Positions 3,414-33,255 of a stretch of DNA of 34,146 nt are shown here, piece by piece. The notes below the pieces were generated by a model that saw nothing but the letters and a program-made list of their open reading frames with translations, did no database searches and was not told the origin of the DNA. Location: IMG/VR virus record IMGVR_UViG_2541047954_000008; one strand, given 5' to 3'. A program made the position numbers and the translations under genes. Origin of the DNA: a virus (lineage: Duplodnaviria; Heunggongvirae; Uroviricota; Caudoviricetes). The number at the start of each line of letters is the position of its first letter. Positions within the stretch are counted from its first letter, which is position 1.

Positions 3414-6400
3414 TGTACAATCCTCCATCCCGACGCGATGACTGCATAATTGACACAACCCTGCTGTCGATCAGATCCACCAGTCCCCTGGCTGAGCGCG
3501 CATCTATCTCGCCATTGCTCCCTTGATTCTGAATGCTGATGTGATACACGGGAGAATAAACAAATCCACCGCCACCATTCACATTTCCAATGGCCCTGAC
3601 CCCAAGAGAGCCGTCCGCTGCCCGTGTCAGTGGCATGATTGCTTCAGGCCCGGCCTCGCCCATCAACCCGGCACCTTTCGCAAAAGCAAAATACGTCGGT
3701 GTATCCACAATAGTGTTACTGTAAGCACTCAGATTTGCCGATGTGTAAACACCACCTTTTGCGTTTGCCACTACCCCCGAAATCCATCCGCCGACCGTAC
3801 CAAGCCACCCTCCGGCACCGGAGAGTGATTTCAGTCCGTTAACAATGGCTGCATTCATCAGAATTTTTGAAACTTCCCGGAGAACTGAACTCCCCCAGTT
3901 CCTCCAGTCCACAACATTCCCGGCCAGTGCATCGGAAATATTTGATACCAGCCCGTCCATCGTGGAAACGACAGCATCTGCCGCCTGTGAAGCATAATCG
4001 GTGGCACTGTCTGCCCAGTTGGTCAGTCCCTCCTGGAGTCCGGCATTCCAGTTATTACGTAAAGCATCGGCCTTTGCATAATAATCCTGCTGATCGCTGA
4101 GACGCTCTTCCAGATATTTTTTATTCAGTTCTTTCTCCTGTTTCCACAGGGCTTCTTCAATTTCTCCGGCCTGATACTGTCTCAGCAGCTCGTTATTTTT
4201 CTGCTCAAACGCCTGCCGGATACTCCACATTTCCTGGAGTCGTTCACGCATCCGTGAGCCTTCACCATATCCCAGCAACTGCGCTTCGTCAGATGCCCGG
4301 GCACTGGCATTACTGTCCGCCAGACTGCTCTCATACGCAGCAAGCTGCTCACGAATCTTTTTCTGGTCGATGAGTGCTGCATTCTGCAAAAGCGTTTTTT
4401 TCTGCGCTTCTGACAGGGTTGATAATTCGCCCTGACTGACCTGATATTTCATCTTAGCCAGTTCAGTATTCTGCCCTGCCAATGCTATTTGTTCTTTTTG
4501 CTGTTTAATCAGCCGTTTATAAATATCTTCTGTTTTTTCCGCTTCGGTCTTTTTATGCGCTTTGGGTTTATTTGCCTGGTTATTTCGCCAGGCATCCAGT
4601 GAGGTATTGATATAATTCTGTCTGGCTGTCTGATACGCCTCTCCCACAAAGCCGAGATCATCCGCAGCATAACCCAGGCGGGCACGCTCACGGGCTTCCC
4701 CCTTCAGGCGGGACAGAGCCAGTTCGCGCTCGCTGTTATTCAGTGCGGTCTGCTGTTTATCATCCAGGGTTGCCTGTGGTAGCCGTAACGGTACATTCAC
4801 CAGCCCCTGTCGCTGCTGAAGTAATTCATTACCGAGCCCGAGAAGGCGATTAAACTCGGTATGCTGCCCATTCATGATCAACAGGGACTGATACGCTTTG
4901 TTTTGTTCCGCGGCCTGTTGACGGATCAACGCCACCCGTCGCTCCTCCAGCCCGGCAAGCACATCCTGAATGGATTGCGCTTTGCCCTGCATTTGTGTGA
5001 GACGGGACTGTTCAACTGCCAGTTGATTTGTTGCTTCTGCAAGCCCTTCTGTGACAGTTTTTACCGACGTCATGTGGTTAATCATAAAACCGTTATCGGT
5101 TGTCCAGCCCGGGTTTGCCAGCACATACTGATAGCCAGCAATTTTTTCCTGTAAGGATTTAATCTTACTTTTCTGCTCGTCAATTAACCTGTTTTGCTCA
5201 TCAAGTGCCTGCCGCGTCTTTTCCTCATTATCTGACGCTTCAGGAAGCGACATTGCCGACGTTTTCTGGCGAATTTCGTCGATTGTTGCGGCATACTGGC
5301 GTGCAGATTCTCTGGCCTGCTCCTGATTCTGATACATCGTGTACCAGGCCGTCGCCCCCAGCATGACTAGTCCCGGCACACCACCAACCAACCCCAGCGC
5401 ACCACTTAACAGACGACTCCCCACTGACGTGACAGTATTCAGCGTTGTCTGTGCCGCTGTTCTGGCCGCAATATTACGGGTAAGTGACGCCTGGGCAGCT
5501 GTCAGCTTCGCTTCTGCTGCGGCCTGCCTTTCGGTACCGCGAGCAGCAACAACCGCCTGTTGCGCACGATAAACCGCCGCACGCGCCCTGGCGGTTGCTA
5601 TCTGTGTCCCCCGAAGTTGCGCTTCAGCAAGAGCCACTTCGTTTCTGGCTGCAGTAATTAATCCGGCAGTTGCAGATCCAGCAGACGACGCCATATTGCC
5701 AAAATATCGGGCTCCCCCGACGGCAACCAGTGCGCCAGCTGCAGCAGCCACGGTATCAATATTGTCTGCAACACCATTCAACACCCCGGTGAGTGTCTTT
5801 GTCACTCCGCTTGCCTCGTTCGCACCACCAACCCAGGCCATAAAGGCGTTTTCAACTTTGGTTGCAGAGGATGAAACAGTATCAGGCATTGCTGCATATT
5901 CATCACGCAACGCCCCAAGCTGACTAATCAGTGCAGGAACAACCTTATCGGCGGTCAGTTTTCCGTTATCCGCCATGGCCTTCAGATCCTTACGGGCAAC
6001 ACCCATTCCCGCAGCCAGCGCACGAATAACACGATCGCCGTTCTCATTCACAGAGTTAAATTCTTCACCGCGCAGCACTCCCTGCGCCAGTGCCTGACTG
6101 AACTGCGTGATCACCGAACTGGCTTCTGCTGTACTGGCACCGGATAATTTCAGGCCCGTGGAGATCGCCTCGGTGACTTTCAGTACCTCCTCAGAACTGT
6201 AGCCATACTCCCGCATGGAAGCTGCAGAGCGGGCAAAAAGGCTGGCGTTATCAGAAAACGCCGTTCCCGTTCTCTGGCTGATTGCCATTAATTCACGTTG
6301 TGATACCTGAAAATCATCACTGGACTGTGAAGCCTGCTTCAGACGGGCATTGACTGAATTCCACTCATCGGCGAGAGAAATAAGATGACCGGTAGCAAAA

Positions 6401-17763: not shown

Positions 17764-17838
<75 letters not shown>

Positions 17839-17841
17839 ATA

Positions 17842-17917
<76 letters not shown>

Positions 17918-17919
17918 AC

Positions 17920-17996
17920 TGGACCGCCACCGGGGACTCGAACCTCGCACACTCAACTTAAAGGGTTGACGCTCTTTCCTGATGAGCTAGTGGCGG
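17920..17996 (-). tRNA. tRNA-like gene, anticodon UUU (Lys) if canonical, with C at position 33
   Basis: Acceptor CCGCCAC/GTGGCGG, anticodon stem UCAAC/GUUGA, loop CCUUUAA, encoded CCA; noncanonical C33 and one T-stem mismatch. Confidence 0.5.
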
Positions 17997-17997
17997 T

Positions 17998-18073
17998 TGG
18001 TGGCCCTTGCTGGATTTGAACCAGCAACCTGGCGATTATGAGTCGCTCGCTCTCACCACTGAGCTAAAGGGCC
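17998..18073 (-). tRNA. tRNA with CAU anticodon (Ile2 lysidine-type or Met), ileX/ileZ-like
   Basis: Acceptor GGCCCUU, anticodon loop CUCAUAA, T-loop TTCAAAT, encoded CCA. Confidence 0.7.
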
Positions 18074-22361: not shown

Positions 22362-22517
22362 TTACTCCTCAGGTTCGTAAGCTGTGAAGACAGCGACCTC
22401 CGTCTGGCCGGTTCGGATTCGTACCTCGCAGAGGTCTTTCCTCGTTACCAGTGCCGTCACTATGACGGTTAAACAGATGACGATCAGGGCGATTAGCATC
22501 GCCTTTTGCTGCTTCAT
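22362..22517 (-). CDS. hok: Hok/Gef-family type I toxin (51 aa)
   Basis: MKQQKAMLIALIVICLTVIVTALVTRKDLCEVRIRTGQTEVAVFTAYEPEE, recalled as HokD/RelF-like; AGGAGAAG 8 nt upstream; in-frame upstream ATG at 22574 gives a 70-codon ORF. Confidence 0.85.
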   Translation of the reverse strand: MKQQKAMLIALIVICLTVIVTALVTRKDLCEVRIRTGQTEVAVFTAYEPEE

Positions 22518-22728
22518 AGCCTGCTTCTCCTTGCCTTTCGGCACGTAAGAGGCTAACCTACATGTGTTCAGCATGGATTGAGCCTCAGATTAATGTTAAG
22601 CGTCTTGCGGGACGCGTAATGTTAACTGGGGCTTTTCTCTATCTGCCGTTGGTGTTCATGCCCGAGGCAGATAGCCTCAAGCACCCGCAGCAATTCTACT
22701 TAACTCACGTCACCTCGCCAATATAAAA

Positions 22729-26142: not shown

Positions 26143-26568
26143 TCAATGTACTGCCACAGCATTTCCTGCCGGGCCACCACGGTTCATCTGATTGAAACCG
26201 GCGATTGCCACTGCGACAAAATCATCAGCGTCTCTCACCAATCGCTCCCGCGTCTCCACCAGCTCCCGAAAATAAGCTGAACTGTGGCTGCGCATTCTGG
26301 CCACCAGCAAAGGTGGCATTGCCTTTTCGATCGCTGGTAACAACGCCTGAATTTTTTCAACTGCATCAGGGGTGTCTTTCTCTACCCAGCGGAAAATTTT
26401 CTGGGTATTGCGAGCCAGGGCTTCCGGATGGCTGTCGTCATACAGTTCAGGAAACGTCATACCCAACTCAAAATAAGCCTGGGTTATTCCAGCTGCTGGA
26501 ACTTTTTCGCCATCAGGACGCGCCCAGGCATTCATCGCCATGCGGATGTGTTCATGCTTGATTTTCAT
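26143..26568 (-). CDS. YdaT-like early protein
   Basis: ATG 26568-26566 (MKIKHEHI) with AAGGGGGGA upstream; position between cro-like and O-like as in Rac ydaS-ydaT-ydaU (recalled). Confidence 0.5.
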   Translation of the reverse strand: MKIKHEHIRMAMNAWARPDGEKVPAAGITQAYFELGMTFPELYDDSHPEALARNTQKIFRWVEKDTPDAVEKIQALLPAIEKAMPPLLVARMRSHSSAYFRELVETRERLVRDADDFVAVAIAGFNQMNRGGPAGNAVAVH

Positions 26569-26794
26569 GAATCCCCCCTTGGTTAGAAGGCGGATTATGA
26601 TCAGAACCGGGAATGACAACCGTCGGTATGTGTAACTCATATTTGAGCGCCCCGGCAGTGACTGCCTGAATTAGCAACGCCCATTTCCACGGAACCTCTT
26701 CCCCCCACATGCTGACTGTGGTTTTTGACGTTCCTAGAGCTGCGGCTGTTTTAACAACTCCGCCAAAATAGCCTAATACTTCTGATTTTTTCAT
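26552..26794 (-). CDS. Cro-like HTH regulator
   Basis: 80 aa from ATG 26794-26792 (GGAG upstream); HTH-like VVKTAAALGTSKTTVSMW; divergent from cI-like gene. Confidence 0.7.
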   Translation of the reverse strand: MKKSEVLGYFGGVVKTAAALGTSKTTVSMWGEEVPWKWALLIQAVTAGALKYELHIPTVVIPGSDHNPPSNQGGIHENQA

Positions 26795-26885
26795 GAGTCG
26801 CTCCATAAAACTGAACGCCAAAAGTTTAATAATCAAAACCAAAGAAAGTCAAGAAACAAAACCATCTGTGTTTTAAAATCAAAAC
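26795..26885. promoter_or_regulatory. Divergent immunity control region with two operator-like inverted repeats
   Basis: O1 agtttaataatcaaaacc 26823-26840; O2 tgttttaaaatcaaaaca 26869-26886 abutting the cI ATG; TTGACT -35 on the cro strand. Confidence 0.5.
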
Positions 26886-27524
26886 ATGAGCAAGCAAACA
26901 ATATCTGAACGCATAACCCAACGTATGCATGCGCTAAACCTGAAAGGCAAAGACCTTGTCAATGCCACTGGCGCATCAAAAGGCTCCGTAAGTCAATGGA
27001 TGAACGGTGGAGGAGCGCCGTCCTCGCGTTACATAAGTTCACTGGCAAAGGTATTGAAAGTAAACGAAAATTGGCTTCTTAATGGAGGAGAGTTAAATAC
27101 AGGTGATTCGCTTGATCTATCTTTACCGCCGATAAAAACGGTTCCGCTACTATCACTTCAGCAGGCAGCAAGCTGGAGTGATTATATGAAAAATTCCTCA
27201 ATAACCTCTTGTGTGCAGCTTGTCGGAGAAATCCCGGCCAATACCTTTGCAGTTGTTCTAGAGAGTGACAGTATGTCAACATCTGGTGGGGGAGTTTCCA
27301 TCCCAAATGGTTCAACAGTTTTTGTTGATCCCGATCGAACCGTACAACCAGGAAATATTGTCCTTGCCTTACCCAAAGGGACCACAACACCTGTCATTCG
27401 TAAACTGGAGATAGAAGGGCCGGATATTCTTTTAGTCCCCACGAATCCTCGCTACCCTTCAATTATGCTGGATGATCTATCTTGCATATTGGGCGTATGC
27501 TTTAAAATTCAACAAGATATTTAA
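26886..27524 (+). CDS. cI-like repressor (N-terminal HTH, C-terminal S24 LexA-like peptidase)
   Basis: 212 aa; HTH GKDLVNATGASKGSVSQWMNG; C-terminal ESDSMS (Ser) and downstream Lys consistent with Ser-Lys dyad. Confidence 0.85.
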   Translation: MSKQTISERITQRMHALNLKGKDLVNATGASKGSVSQWMNGGGAPSSRYISSLAKVLKVNENWLLNGGELNTGDSLDLSLPPIKTVPLLSLQQAASWSDYMKNSSITSCVQLVGEIPANTFAVVLESDSMSTSGGGVSIPNGSTVFVDPDRTVQPGNIVLALPKGTTTPVIRKLEIEGPDILLVPTNPRYPSIMLDDLSCILGVCFKIQQDI

Positions 27525-27588
27525 CCAACCTCATCTATTTGATTAACTGTATGCCATCGTGGCGATGGCTTAACAGCTGCCTGCTTAA

Positions 27589-27637
27589 AATGTTTTGATA
27601 AAAAAACATTGACCTGAAAAGTTCATTTTTCTAAACT
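27589..27637 (+). promoter_or_regulatory. PL-like promoter with overlapping operator O3
   Basis: Perfect inverted repeat aatgtttt-gataaa-aaaacatt (27589-27610) overlapping -35 TTGACC (27609-27614), 17-bp spacer, -10 TAAACT (27632-27637). Confidence 0.45.
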
Positions 27638-27816
27638 TCATTCATTCCCTCACCCCACCCCACAGAATGCAGGGCAATACTTCGAGTTACCAGGCAGTGG
27701 TCAGGGGTTAAGTAGCCAGCCCGAGGCGTAAGAACATGACGGCAGGGTTCAACTTTAATAACTATGCAGCAGGTTTTTGTTCCGCTACCCCGGCGTTAAG
27801 GGGAAATGAGGTCAAC

Positions 27817-27972
27817 ATGGATACTATCGATCTTGGCAACAACGAATCTCTGGTGTACGGCGTGTTTCCCAACCAGGACGGCACATTCACCGCGATGACG
27901 TATACCAAAAGCAAAACGTTTAAAACCGAAAATGGTGCCCGTCGCTGGCTGGAAAGAAACTCAGGTGAGTGA
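27817..27972 (+). CDS. ydfA: YdfA-like small protein (51 aa)
   Basis: ATG 27817 with GAGG upstream; first gene of the dicB-type operon; recalled as Qin ydfA-like. Confidence 0.65.
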   Translation: MDTIDLGNNESLVYGVFPNQDGTFTAMTYTKSKTFKTENGARRWLERNSGE

Positions 27973-27973
27973 T

Positions 27974-28102
27974 ATGGATTTCGACACAATCATGGAAAAG
28001 GCTTACGAAGAATACTTCGAAGGCCTTGCCGAAGGCGAAGAAGCTCTCAGCTTCAGTGAGTTTAAACAGGCGCTTTCCAGCTCGGCAAAATCTAACGGCT
28101 GA
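27974..28102 (+). CDS. ydfB: YdfB-like small protein (42 aa)
   Basis: ATG 2 nt after ydfA stop; MDFDTIMEKAYEEYFEGLAEGEEALSFSEFKQALSSSAKSNG; below track cut-off. Confidence 0.6.
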   Translation: MDFDTIMEKAYEEYFEGLAEGEEALSFSEFKQALSSSAKSNG

Positions 28103-28131
28103 TAAGCGAAGCAGCACCGCGAGGAATCAGT

Positions 28132-28350
28132 ATGCAGAAACGAGAACCCGTCATCATCGCGCCAGACTATACCGATGATGAACTTTATGAGTGGATGCGC
28201 CAGAAAATTAATGCAGCGCAGGATCTGAAATGGGCCAATGAAGCCAGGGCTAAGCAGGCTGAAAATCTGTCCGCTCTGGAGCAGGATATCACCAATCTGG
28301 AAAAAGCAGCGGCATTAAGCATTGCCAGAATGATTACATACCCGCGTTAA
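28132..28350 (+). CDS. ydfC: YdfC-like protein (72 aa)
   Basis: Track ORF; operon position before DicF. Confidence 0.65.
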   Translation: MQKREPVIIAPDYTDDELYEWMRQKINAAQDLKWANEARAKQAENLSALEQDITNLEKAAALSIARMITYPR

Positions 28351-28467
28351 TAGCTAACCAACGAAGCTAAGGTTGGTAATTAAGGAGTTCTCCACGGGTG
28401 AGGTGGAGTGCGTGCGCCGGACACGGGTGAGCATCCGGCACTGACAGTTTACTGAAAGGATATTTCC

Positions 28468-28656
28468 ATGAAAAGTCAGACCATAACGCGAAAGCGCACG
28501 GCGAAGTTCGTCTCACTGTACGGTGTCGTTAAATTTAATTCGACCGTGCGCTTCCGGTTGTGGCAACCCGCGAAATGGCGCGGCGGTAAGTATGGCGGGG
28601 TTATTCCTTCCCCGTTGAGGACACCGGGTTGTCAGGTTGACCATACGCTTAAGTGA
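28468..28656 (+). CDS. Possible small basic protein inside the DicF precursor region
   Basis: 62-aa ORF with AAGGA 8 nt upstream; may equally be non-coding. Confidence 0.25.
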   Translation: MKSQTITRKRTAKFVSLYGVVKFNSTVRFRLWQPAKWRGGKYGGVIPSPLRTPGCQVDHTLK

Positions 28657-28687
28657 CAACCCCGCTGCAACGCCCTCTGTTATCAAT

Positions 28688-28745
28688 TTTCTGGTGACGT
28701 TTGGCGGTATCAGTTTTACTCCGTGACTGCTCTGCCGCCCTTTTT
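28688..28745 (+). ncRNA. dicF: DicF small RNA (antisense regulator of ftsZ) with hairpin and T-run terminator
   Basis: tttctggtgacgtttggcggtatcagttttactccgtgactgctctgccgcccttttt recalled as DicF; ends hand-estimated. Confidence 0.7.
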
Positions 28746-28914
28746 AAAGTGAATTTTGTGATGCGGTGAATGCGGCTAAGCGCACGCGGAACAGTTAAAA
28801 CCAAAAACAGTGTTATGGGTGGATTCTCTGTATCCGGCGTTAATTGTTAACTGGTTAACGTCACCTGGAGGCACCAGGCACCGCATCACAAAACTCATTG
28901 TTGAGGGCGCGATA

Positions 28915-29103
28915 ATGAAAACGTTATTACCAAACGTTAATACGTCTGAAGGTTGTTTTGAAATTGGTGTCACTATCAGTAATCCTGTATTTACTGAAGA
29001 TGCCATTAACAAAAGAAAACACGAACGGGAGTTATTAAATAAAGTATGCATTGTTTCAATGCTGGCCCGTTTACGTCTGATGCCAAAAGGATGTGCACAA
29101 TGA
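28915..29103 (+). CDS. dicB: Cell division inhibitor DicB (62 aa)
   Basis: MKTLLPNVNTSEGCFEIGVTISNPVFTEDAINKRK..., recalled as near-identical to K-12 DicB; GAGGG upstream. Confidence 0.8.
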   Translation: MKTLLPNVNTSEGCFEIGVTISNPVFTEDAINKRKHERELLNKVCIVSMLARLRLMPKGCAQ

Positions 29104-29291
29104 ATCCAGTATTTGCACTTATTCTGACGGTTTTTCTTGTTTCCGGAGAGCCAGTTGATATTGCAGTCAGTGTTCACAGAACAATGCAGGAATGTATGGC
29201 AGCAGCAACCGAACAGAAAATTCCAGGCAACTGTTATCCGGTCGATAAAGTTATTCACCAGGATAATAACGAAATCCCGGCAGGATTTTAA
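29100..29291 (+). CDS. ydfD: YdfD-like lysis-associated small membrane protein (63 aa)
   Basis: ATG overlaps dicB stop (ATGA); hydrophobic N-terminus MNPVFALILTVFLVSG. Confidence 0.7.
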   Translation: MNPVFALILTVFLVSGEPVDIAVSVHRTMQECMAAATEQKIPGNCYPVDKVIHQDNNEIPAGF

Positions 29292-33165: not shown

Positions 33166-33255
33166 TGGCGGAGAGAGGGGGATTTGAACCCCCGGTGGAG
33201 TTGCCCCCACTCCGGTTTTCGAGACCGGTCCGTTCAGCCGCTCCGGCATCTCTCC
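33166..33255 (-). tRNA. serU: tRNA-Ser (anticodon CGA), host gene serving as att site
   Basis: 90-nt cloverleaf with long variable arm: GGAGAGATGCCGGAGCGGCTGAACGGACCGGTCTCGAAAACCGG...CTCTCCGCCA. Confidence 0.8.

Follow-up and report, generated by a model that had tools for sequence, protein, structure and literature searches.

Sequence evidence for a probable P22/lambda-type immunity switch with candidate TGTTTT-N6-AAAACA operators, linked to a dicBF-type operon in an Escherichia coli prophage

The tailed-phage record IMGVR_UViG_2541047954_000008 (Caudoviricetes) is a stretch of 34,146 bp, the whole of which we refer to as the window. It carries divergent genes for a cI-like repressor and a Cro-like protein, which are separated by a 91-bp spacer and accompanied by an operon of the dicBF type. 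A first reading of the letters of this DNA (the original prediction) had proposed three operator-like sites and a probable leaderless cI transcript at this locus, on the assumption that the genes concerned are cI, cro, and a dicB-type operon, and our domain and RNA family matches agree with those identities. The start codon of cro is at 26794 rather than 26795. The genes, promoters, and sites on which the analysis turns are as follows.

26143-26568, minus strand: YdaT/cII-like gene.
26552-26794, minus strand: cro/dicC-like gene encoding an 80-amino-acid (aa) protein of the P22_Cro family (Pfam PF14549; E = 1.1e-15), with its ATG at 26794 preceded by GGAG.
26886-27524, plus strand: gene for the cI-like repressor (212 aa), with an N-terminal helix-turn-helix (HTH) domain (PF01381, HTH_3) and a C-terminal Peptidase_S24 domain (PF00717).
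27817-29291, plus strand: dicBF-type operon (ydfA, ydfB, ydfC, DicF, dicB, and a ydfD-like gene).
26823-26852, minus strand: PR-like promoter, TTGACT-18-TAAACT by consensus scan, directed toward cro-ydaT; predicted start at about 26816.
26874-26879, plus strand: TAAAAT, the putative -10 of PRM, read from the sequence; predicted start at 26886, on the A of the cI start codon.
27609-27637, plus strand: PL-like promoter, the equivalent of dicBp, TTGACC (27609-27614)-17-TAAACT (27632-27637) by consensus scan; predicted start at about 27644.
26823-26840: O1, AGTTTAATAATCAAAACC (AGTTTA-ATAATC-AAAACC), a weak dyad with three mismatches to the consensus; -24 to -7 of PR and -63 to -46 of PRM, counted here and below from the predicted starts.
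26846-26863: candidate site B, AAGTCAAGAAACAAAACC (AAGTCAAGAAAC-AAAACC), over the PR -35, in which the right half-site alone is kept; -47 to -30 of PR and -40 to -23 of PRM.
26869-26886: O2, tgttttaaaatcaaaaca (TGTTTT-AAAATC-AAAACA), a perfect dyad and an exact match to the consensus; -70 to -53 of PR and -17 to +1 of PRM.
27589-27610: O3, aatgttttgataaaaaaacatt (AATGTTTT-GATAAA-AAAACATT), a perfect 8-6-8 inverted repeat (I24), the core of which (27591-27608) is a perfect dyad and an exact TGTTTT-N6-AAAACA; the core lies at -53 to -36 of PL, adjoining the -35.
27620-27637: AGTTCA-TTTTTC-TAAACT, a doubtful weak proximal PL site; -24 to -7 of PL.

All of the strings quoted in the original prediction were recovered where it had placed them, including TAAAAT at 26874-26879 and TTGACC-17-TAAACT. 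A window-wide motif scan, which it had named as a check, finds the exact motif TGTTTT-N6-AAAACA only twice in 34,146 bp, at O2 and O3 and not in coding DNA, against an expectation of 0.03; in 100 shuffles, two copies never arose. Matches with up to two mismatches occur three additional times elsewhere in the window, which is chance level. The shorter core dyad GTTT-N8-AAAC is found three times in the 34 kb, precisely at O1, O2, and O3 (0.79 expected), a count that is partly post hoc because the pattern was taken from the sites themselves; the repeat finder independently places the same three sites in one family (D1). An extended half-site, ATCAAAAC, is common to the right halves of O1 and O2 and, inverted, to the left half of O3, and the motif is restricted to the two noncoding regions that flank cI. 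The right half of B repeats the right half of O1 as a direct repeat (D5; 14 nt, 86%) at a spacing of exactly 23 bp and has the same distance to the right half of O2, such that O1, B, and O2 fall in a 23-bp register. B is probably a fourth site, missed by the original prediction.

With respect to the promoters, O2 spans the putative -10 and start site of PRM, and its final base is, as had been proposed, the A of the cI start codon (ATG at 26886). The proposed overlap of O1 with the cro-side promoter is likewise borne out, with O1 covering the PR -10 and 12 bp of the spacer. O3 is indeed a perfect 8-6-8 repeat; its supposed overlap with the PL -35 reduces to the two outer bases, the core ending at 27608 against that hexamer. 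About 70 bp separates the predicted starts of PR and PRM (the corresponding distance in lambda is about 82 bp), and the -35 regions of the two promoters therefore overlap. PR and PL have the same -10 (TAAACT) and near-identical -35 hexamers (TTGACT and TTGACC), and the -10 hexamer TAAACT also serves O1 as its variant half-site, AGTTTA.

A 1.3-kb region containing these elements is present at 98 to 99.8% identity in 1,042 of 5,426 complete E. coli genomes, and three deposited records of E. coli phages or prophages also contain it. Metagenome and IMG/VR scans returned only copies at 98 to 100%, and no relatives of the repressor were found between ~83% and ~30% identity. We compiled a conservation table of 137 loci and 86 haplotypes, in which the copies of each site are counted out of 135. 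In this table, 132 copies of O1 are identical; B varies at none of its 18 positions; 132 copies of O2 are identical, the sole variant being A26881G in three copies of the P0004 lineage; and 125 copies of O3 are identical. The TAAAAT hexamer at 26874-26879 is invariant in all copies. When the four sites are pooled, 9 of their 72 positions are variable, most of the divergence coming from two lineages, compared with 63 of the 128 other noncoding positions (~49%; Fisher P ~1e-7) and 236 of the 881 coding positions (P = 0.007).

At the loci of the relatives with 83 to 84% identity (L002 to L005), cI differs from that of the window at ~17% of its nucleotides, and positions 26821-26863 are unchanged except for the last base of O1; the differences are concentrated in the gaps that flank the 18-bp blocks (26817-26820 and 26864-26867). 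Alignment A1, whose seven sequences include these relatives, likewise shows the segment invariant except at the two ends of O1. On the protein side, the recognition helix of cI (SKGSVSQW) and that of Cro are invariant in relatives that differ at 16 to 20% of their residues, and the HTH of the Cro-like protein is invariant in 80%-identical relatives except for one A/S change. This co-conservation of HTH motifs and sites offers indirect support for the idea that the repressor and the Cro-like protein would bind the sites. The conservation of B alone is no proof of an operator because B overlaps a promoter element. In two further loci (L006, at 3600-3625, and L007), the open reading frame (ORF) of the repressor is interrupted by stop codons, with a 178-aa product called, and the A run of O3 has lost 1 bp, which reduces the spacer from 6 to 5 bp; this suggests the joint decay of repressor and operator.

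Comparison with heteroimmune prophages of E. coli, namely, Rac and three other types, delimits the unit to which the sites belong. These prophages match the window in the flanks only: the homology ends at about the ydaT start and the end of cro and resumes at ~27651, just past the PL -10 (1 to ~71 and 1152-1301 in the coordinates of the 1.3-kb query). By these alignments, the segment from cro to the PL start site is evidently exchanged as one unit among such prophages. Since the differing stretch begins at the end of cro and stops just beyond the PL -10, O3 and PL are inherited with cI and cro, as expected if O3 is read by the proteins of its own cassette. The foreign cassettes all carry palindromes of their own at the equivalent places, most with one at or beside the repressor ATG, and at PL a palindrome is found beside the -35, in the spacer or -10, or in both of these places. 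Across the heteroimmune prophages, Rac among them, the stretch from ~27651 up to ydfA (start at 27817), which forms the 5' leader of the PL transcript, is 87 to 97% conserved, although the promoters and operators upstream of it are unrelated; this leader matches no Rfam family.

We interpret the locus as the control center of an immunity (lysis-lysogeny) switch of the P22/lambda type, carried by a lambdoid prophage of E. coli, with the dyads as its operators, and place the probability of this reading at roughly 80%. The protein binding, order of occupancy, repression, and transcription start that it entails are modeled on characterized systems. In such a switch, the repressor and the P22_Cro-family protein, each as dimers, would bind 18-bp dyads with the half-site TGTTTT(GAT), and the operator region between the two genes (OR) would comprise three sites: O1 over the PR -10, B over the PR -35, and O2 over the PRM -10 and start. 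In a lysogen, repressor dimers on O1 and B, probably cooperative, would shut PR and with it the cro-ydaT-replication genes. Repressor on O3 would shut PL and hence the ydfABC-dicF-dicB operon, like DicA at the dicBp promoter of the Qin prophage, which DicA represses 22-fold (PMC10448788). With O2 occupied, either by Cro at an early stage or by repressor in excess (negative autoregulation), cI would be turned off, and the cI maintenance transcript would start at, or a few nucleotides from, the ATG and be leaderless.

Several observations weigh against this interpretation or limit it. (i) Of the three sites first proposed under TGTTTT-N6-AAAACA, O2 and O3 stand, and O1 fails by that consensus: the three-mismatch class to which it belongs has 29 members in the window versus 21 expected, such that O1 alone is not significant, though GTTT-N8-AAAC does group it with the others. 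(ii) The conservation of O1 and B is inseparable from that of the PR hexamers that they cover. (iii) Single-sequence and alignment scans of 185,579 species-representative genomes recovered no relatives of the repressor; because no wider relatives were found, the footprint rests on two lineages (98 to 100% and ~83%) plus polymorphisms. (iv) The -35 of PRM is poor (AAGAAA, 26851-26856) and overlaps that of PR, and the 9-of-12 promoter scan missed PRM, which is therefore a weak promoter by consensus. (v) Within OR, the strongest dyad falls on the promoter of the repressor itself, and degeneracy is greatest at the site proximal to PR; Qin has the opposite order of strength, its perfect operator Oc being on the dicC side. 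(vi) At PL, the cassette has no convincing operator over the core promoter, in contrast to Qin, Rac, P22, and three other cassettes. (vii) In lambda, OR2 is positioned relative to PRM at about the place that O3 takes relative to PL (-53 to -36), and cI activates from there. (viii) A literature search on the operator strings and the matching phage names returned no characterization, binding, or transcript data for this immunity type.

The ATG at 26886 is the real start of cI, because the repressor is collinear from residue 1 with P22 C2 and DicA (helix 1 of the HTH needs residues 6 to 17), codons 1 to 13 show three or four synonymous changes and one nonsynonymous change relative to the relatives, and there is no Shine-Dalgarno or GGAG-like sequence in the bases before the ATG (aaaatcaaaac). 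Met14 (26925) and Met101 (27186) were considered as starts and rejected, since they would lose helix 1 or the entire HTH, respectively, and the codons upstream of them evolve as coding sequence. All three RefSeq records examined annotate the repressor as a 113-aa "LexA family protein" from Met101 (27186-27524), and the phage record GenBank ON470612 starts it at Met14. The absence of a ribosome-binding site at the true start is the probable cause of the truncated annotation, in which the HTH domain is left out; the full 212-aa ORF with its HTH intact is present in 85 loci.

On balance, we favor a cI maintenance transcript that starts within 0 to 4 nt of the ATG, and by analogy the cI mRNA is likely leaderless. 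Lambda cI mRNA is leaderless from PRM (PMC10491246), and so is the paaR2 mRNA of prophage CP-933P, a member of the same prophage family, as determined by 5' RACE (rapid amplification of cDNA ends) and N-terminal sequencing (PMC8630535). In the P22 record, OR3 adjoins the c2 ATG and the 5' nucleotide of PRM is 4 nt before c2, a leader that is short and yet is not zero. It is the less likely case, though one that keeps some weight, that cI is not leaderless and that its maintenance promoter is further upstream, producing a leader without a Shine-Dalgarno sequence; examples would be AATAAT at 26828-26833 or a reverse promoter inside cro, as in Rac, where a promoter within ydaS also contributes to racR expression (PMC11879457). 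The poor -35 of TAAAAT and its being uncalled by the promoter scan leave room for such a promoter, but no upstream hexamer pair scores higher, and a long leader would still be without a ribosome-binding sequence. Moreover, an operator adjoining the ATG is the layout of both P22 c2 and Qin dicA. AATAAT itself was rejected as an alternative PRM, having no usable -35 and a 45-nt leader without a ribosome-binding site.

A further alternative concerns O3, which might be nonrepressing, the bound repressor being without effect on the dicBF-type promoter or even stimulating it; any repression of PL would then act via another site or by looping to OR, 722 bp from O3. We consider this improbable. The core of O3 merely touches the PL -35, at a position near that of lambda OR2 relative to PRM, and the other cassettes all carry a clear operator in the spacer or -10, where the sole core-promoter candidate here (27620-27637) is degenerate and polymorphic. 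However, PL has a -35 hexamer matching at five of six positions and a 17-bp spacer and so does not look activator dependent, and a dimer bound to the 22-bp palindrome would extend as far as the first bases of the -35. A distal operator beside the -35 is also found in Rac and Qin. In addition, DicB and DicF are toxic and inhibit cell division, and the Qin promoter is repressed by DicA (PMC10448788). The candidate at 27620-27637 had been considered as a second, proximal PL operator since all the compared cassettes have one there and since it mirrors the place of O1 at PR. It was set aside as unsupported: it has one mismatch to GTTT-N8-AAAC, a class that occurs at chance frequency, and 13 of its 18 positions vary among the copies, mostly in single copies. 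The region around it forms a 75% repeat with the O1 region (D3).

The repressor has the Ser (DSM) and Lys (IRKL) dyad motifs of the S24 domain. Its Ala94-Ala95 (27165-27170, within QQAASW) aligns with an Ala-Gly of P22 C2, which we take to be the scissile bond of RecA-dependent cleavage; the canonical self-cleavage bond is Ala-Gly or Cys-Gly, and it is thus not matched here. Ala-Ala is invariant in the relatives of 83 to 89% identity, and given this residue pair, the RecA/SOS inducibility of the repressor may be altered. This bears on a further reading, which we hold to be similarly improbable, namely, that the switch is wired unlike those of both lambda and Qin, with the only perfect OR dyad on the leaderless start of the repressor, PR under none but degenerate sites, and PL with a single strong site in an activator-like position and no core operator. 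If true, this would imply tight negative autoregulation or a Cro-first target at O2; together with the Ala-Ala bond, it would mean that the repressor could be poorly or not SOS inducible, and that it might only partly silence, or condition, DicF/DicB expression in about a fifth of E. coli strains.

That the inverted repeats are instead RNA hairpins, serving as a cI terminator or attenuator or as 5' structure of the PL transcript, is very improbable, for although O2 and O3 are perfect palindromes that can be drawn as stem-loops, their stems are weak and rich in A-U and G-U pairs (-6.4 kcal/mol for O3 and -3.6 kcal/mol for O2, with 11 and 40 of 200 shuffles, respectively, folding as well), neither is followed by a U tract, and O3 is upstream of the start of PL. 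In addition, one and the same dyad is repeated at three places linked to promoters; a stable hairpin distinct from these, in which compensatory changes are seen, is already present 3' of the cI stop; and a permissive Rfam search of 26700-28000 matched no RNA family.

The remaining features of the cassette and its operon, together with other Rfam matches in the window, are listed here.

27553-27569, plus strand: hairpin GCCATCG-TGG-CGATGGC, 29 nt past the cI stop (-13.8 kcal/mol; z = -2.95; no U tract).
27817-27972, plus strand: ydfA (DUF1391), by Pfam.
27975-28102, plus strand: ydfB-like ORF.
28132-28350, plus strand: ydfC-like ORF.
28689-28740, plus strand: DicF, by Rfam (76.7 bits).
28915-29103, plus strand: dicB, by Pfam (E = 5e-40).
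To 29291, plus strand: ydfD-like gene.
17767-18073, minus strand: cluster of four tRNA genes.
22512-22686: sok antitoxin RNA (113 bits), of a hok/sok-type module.
33169-33255: another tRNA match, close to the window's end, 87 nt and longer than the others; possibly the attachment site.

At the 27559/27563 pair of the hairpin, the window has G-C, most copies have G-T, and the 83% lineage has A-T, which makes a compensatory series; the hairpin is possibly the 3' end of cI or a stability element. The ydfB- and ydfC-like ORFs have no Pfam match and were recognized by eye; both are named in a 99.8%-identical RefSeq record.

The cassette is widespread in E. coli (the 1,042 of 5,426 genomes noted above), where it is placed in front of DicF and DicB, which inhibit cell division. 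The operator TGTTTT-N6-AAAACA should be useful for predicting immunity groups, designing reporters of dicBF induction, and engineering these prophages.

Among known systems, P22 offers close parallels. Its C2 protein is a full-length homolog of the present repressor, 28% identical and collinear with it from Met1, with both having HTH and S24 domains; the Cro family is common to the two systems, and both have 18-bp operators in a register of ~23 bp (P22 OR1 to OR3). In P22 as here, the last OR site adjoins the repressor ATG, the 5' end of PRM is beside the start codon, and the PL -35 is TTGACC. The P22 record annotates overlapping PR and PRM promoter features, and the -35 regions of PR and PRM overlap here too. 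The half-site of P22 differs from the TGTTTT found here, its operator consensus being roughly ATTTAAG-N4-CTTAAAT. Furthermore, OL1 to OL3 of P22 are annotated as spanning PL, with an operator-like dyad between the -35 and -10, whereas here there is one strong site, 5' of the -35; and the left operon of P22 is N type (gene 24), whereas here it is dicBF type.

The Qin prophage is alike in gene order (a dicC-like gene, the repressor, and ydfABC-dicF-dicB), and in both prophages the dicBF promoter is operator linked. The 6-6-6 operator format is shared, with Oc of Qin being TGTTAG-TCATAA-CTAACA and the sequence here TGTTTT-AAAATC-AAAACA, and Oa adjoins the dicA ATG as O2 adjoins the cI ATG (PMC3441716). 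The Qin dicBp, TTGACC-17-TAATCT, has the same -35 and spacer length as PL (PMC10448788). In contrast, DicA is a protein of 135 aa without an S24 domain and is 29% identical to the 212-aa repressor described here; given this, the S24 domain, and the different half-site (TGTTTT versus TGTTAG), the present repressor is not of the DicA family. Qin also has its perfect operator on the dicC side and its dicBp operator in the spacer and -10, neither of which is the case here.

The PaaR2-YdaS-YdaT region of CP-933P/Sp12 has an intergenic region of 97 bp, compared with 91 bp here, and in both a YdaT/cII-like gene is downstream (PMC8630535). Its evenly spaced 18-bp palindromes, some with one half, recall those of the present OR, and its PR and PL have identical hexamers, those here being near identical (PMC8630535). 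In CP-933P the repressor and the Cro-like protein share sites, as determined by footprinting (PMC8630535), whereas the sites here are predicted from sequence. The half-site consensus of CP-933P, GTTTAGTAA, resembles the left half of O1, GTTTAATAA. Unlike the present repressor, PaaR2 is a small HTH protein, not of the S24 type, with a toxin-antitoxin pair behind it, and it is served by four OR and three OL sites.

Lambda itself has divergent cI and cro genes, a tripartite OR, an operator-controlled PL, and a leaderless cI (PMC10491246), and a like layout is proposed here. It differs in that the present locus has no site at the activating -42 position of PRM, has its strongest dyad on PRM rather than on PR, and has no N/nut module. 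Taken with the likenesses to P22, Qin, and CP-933P, the locus represents a new, uncharacterized immunity specificity of a well-known kind, and nothing in it departs conceptually from the lambda/P22 paradigm.

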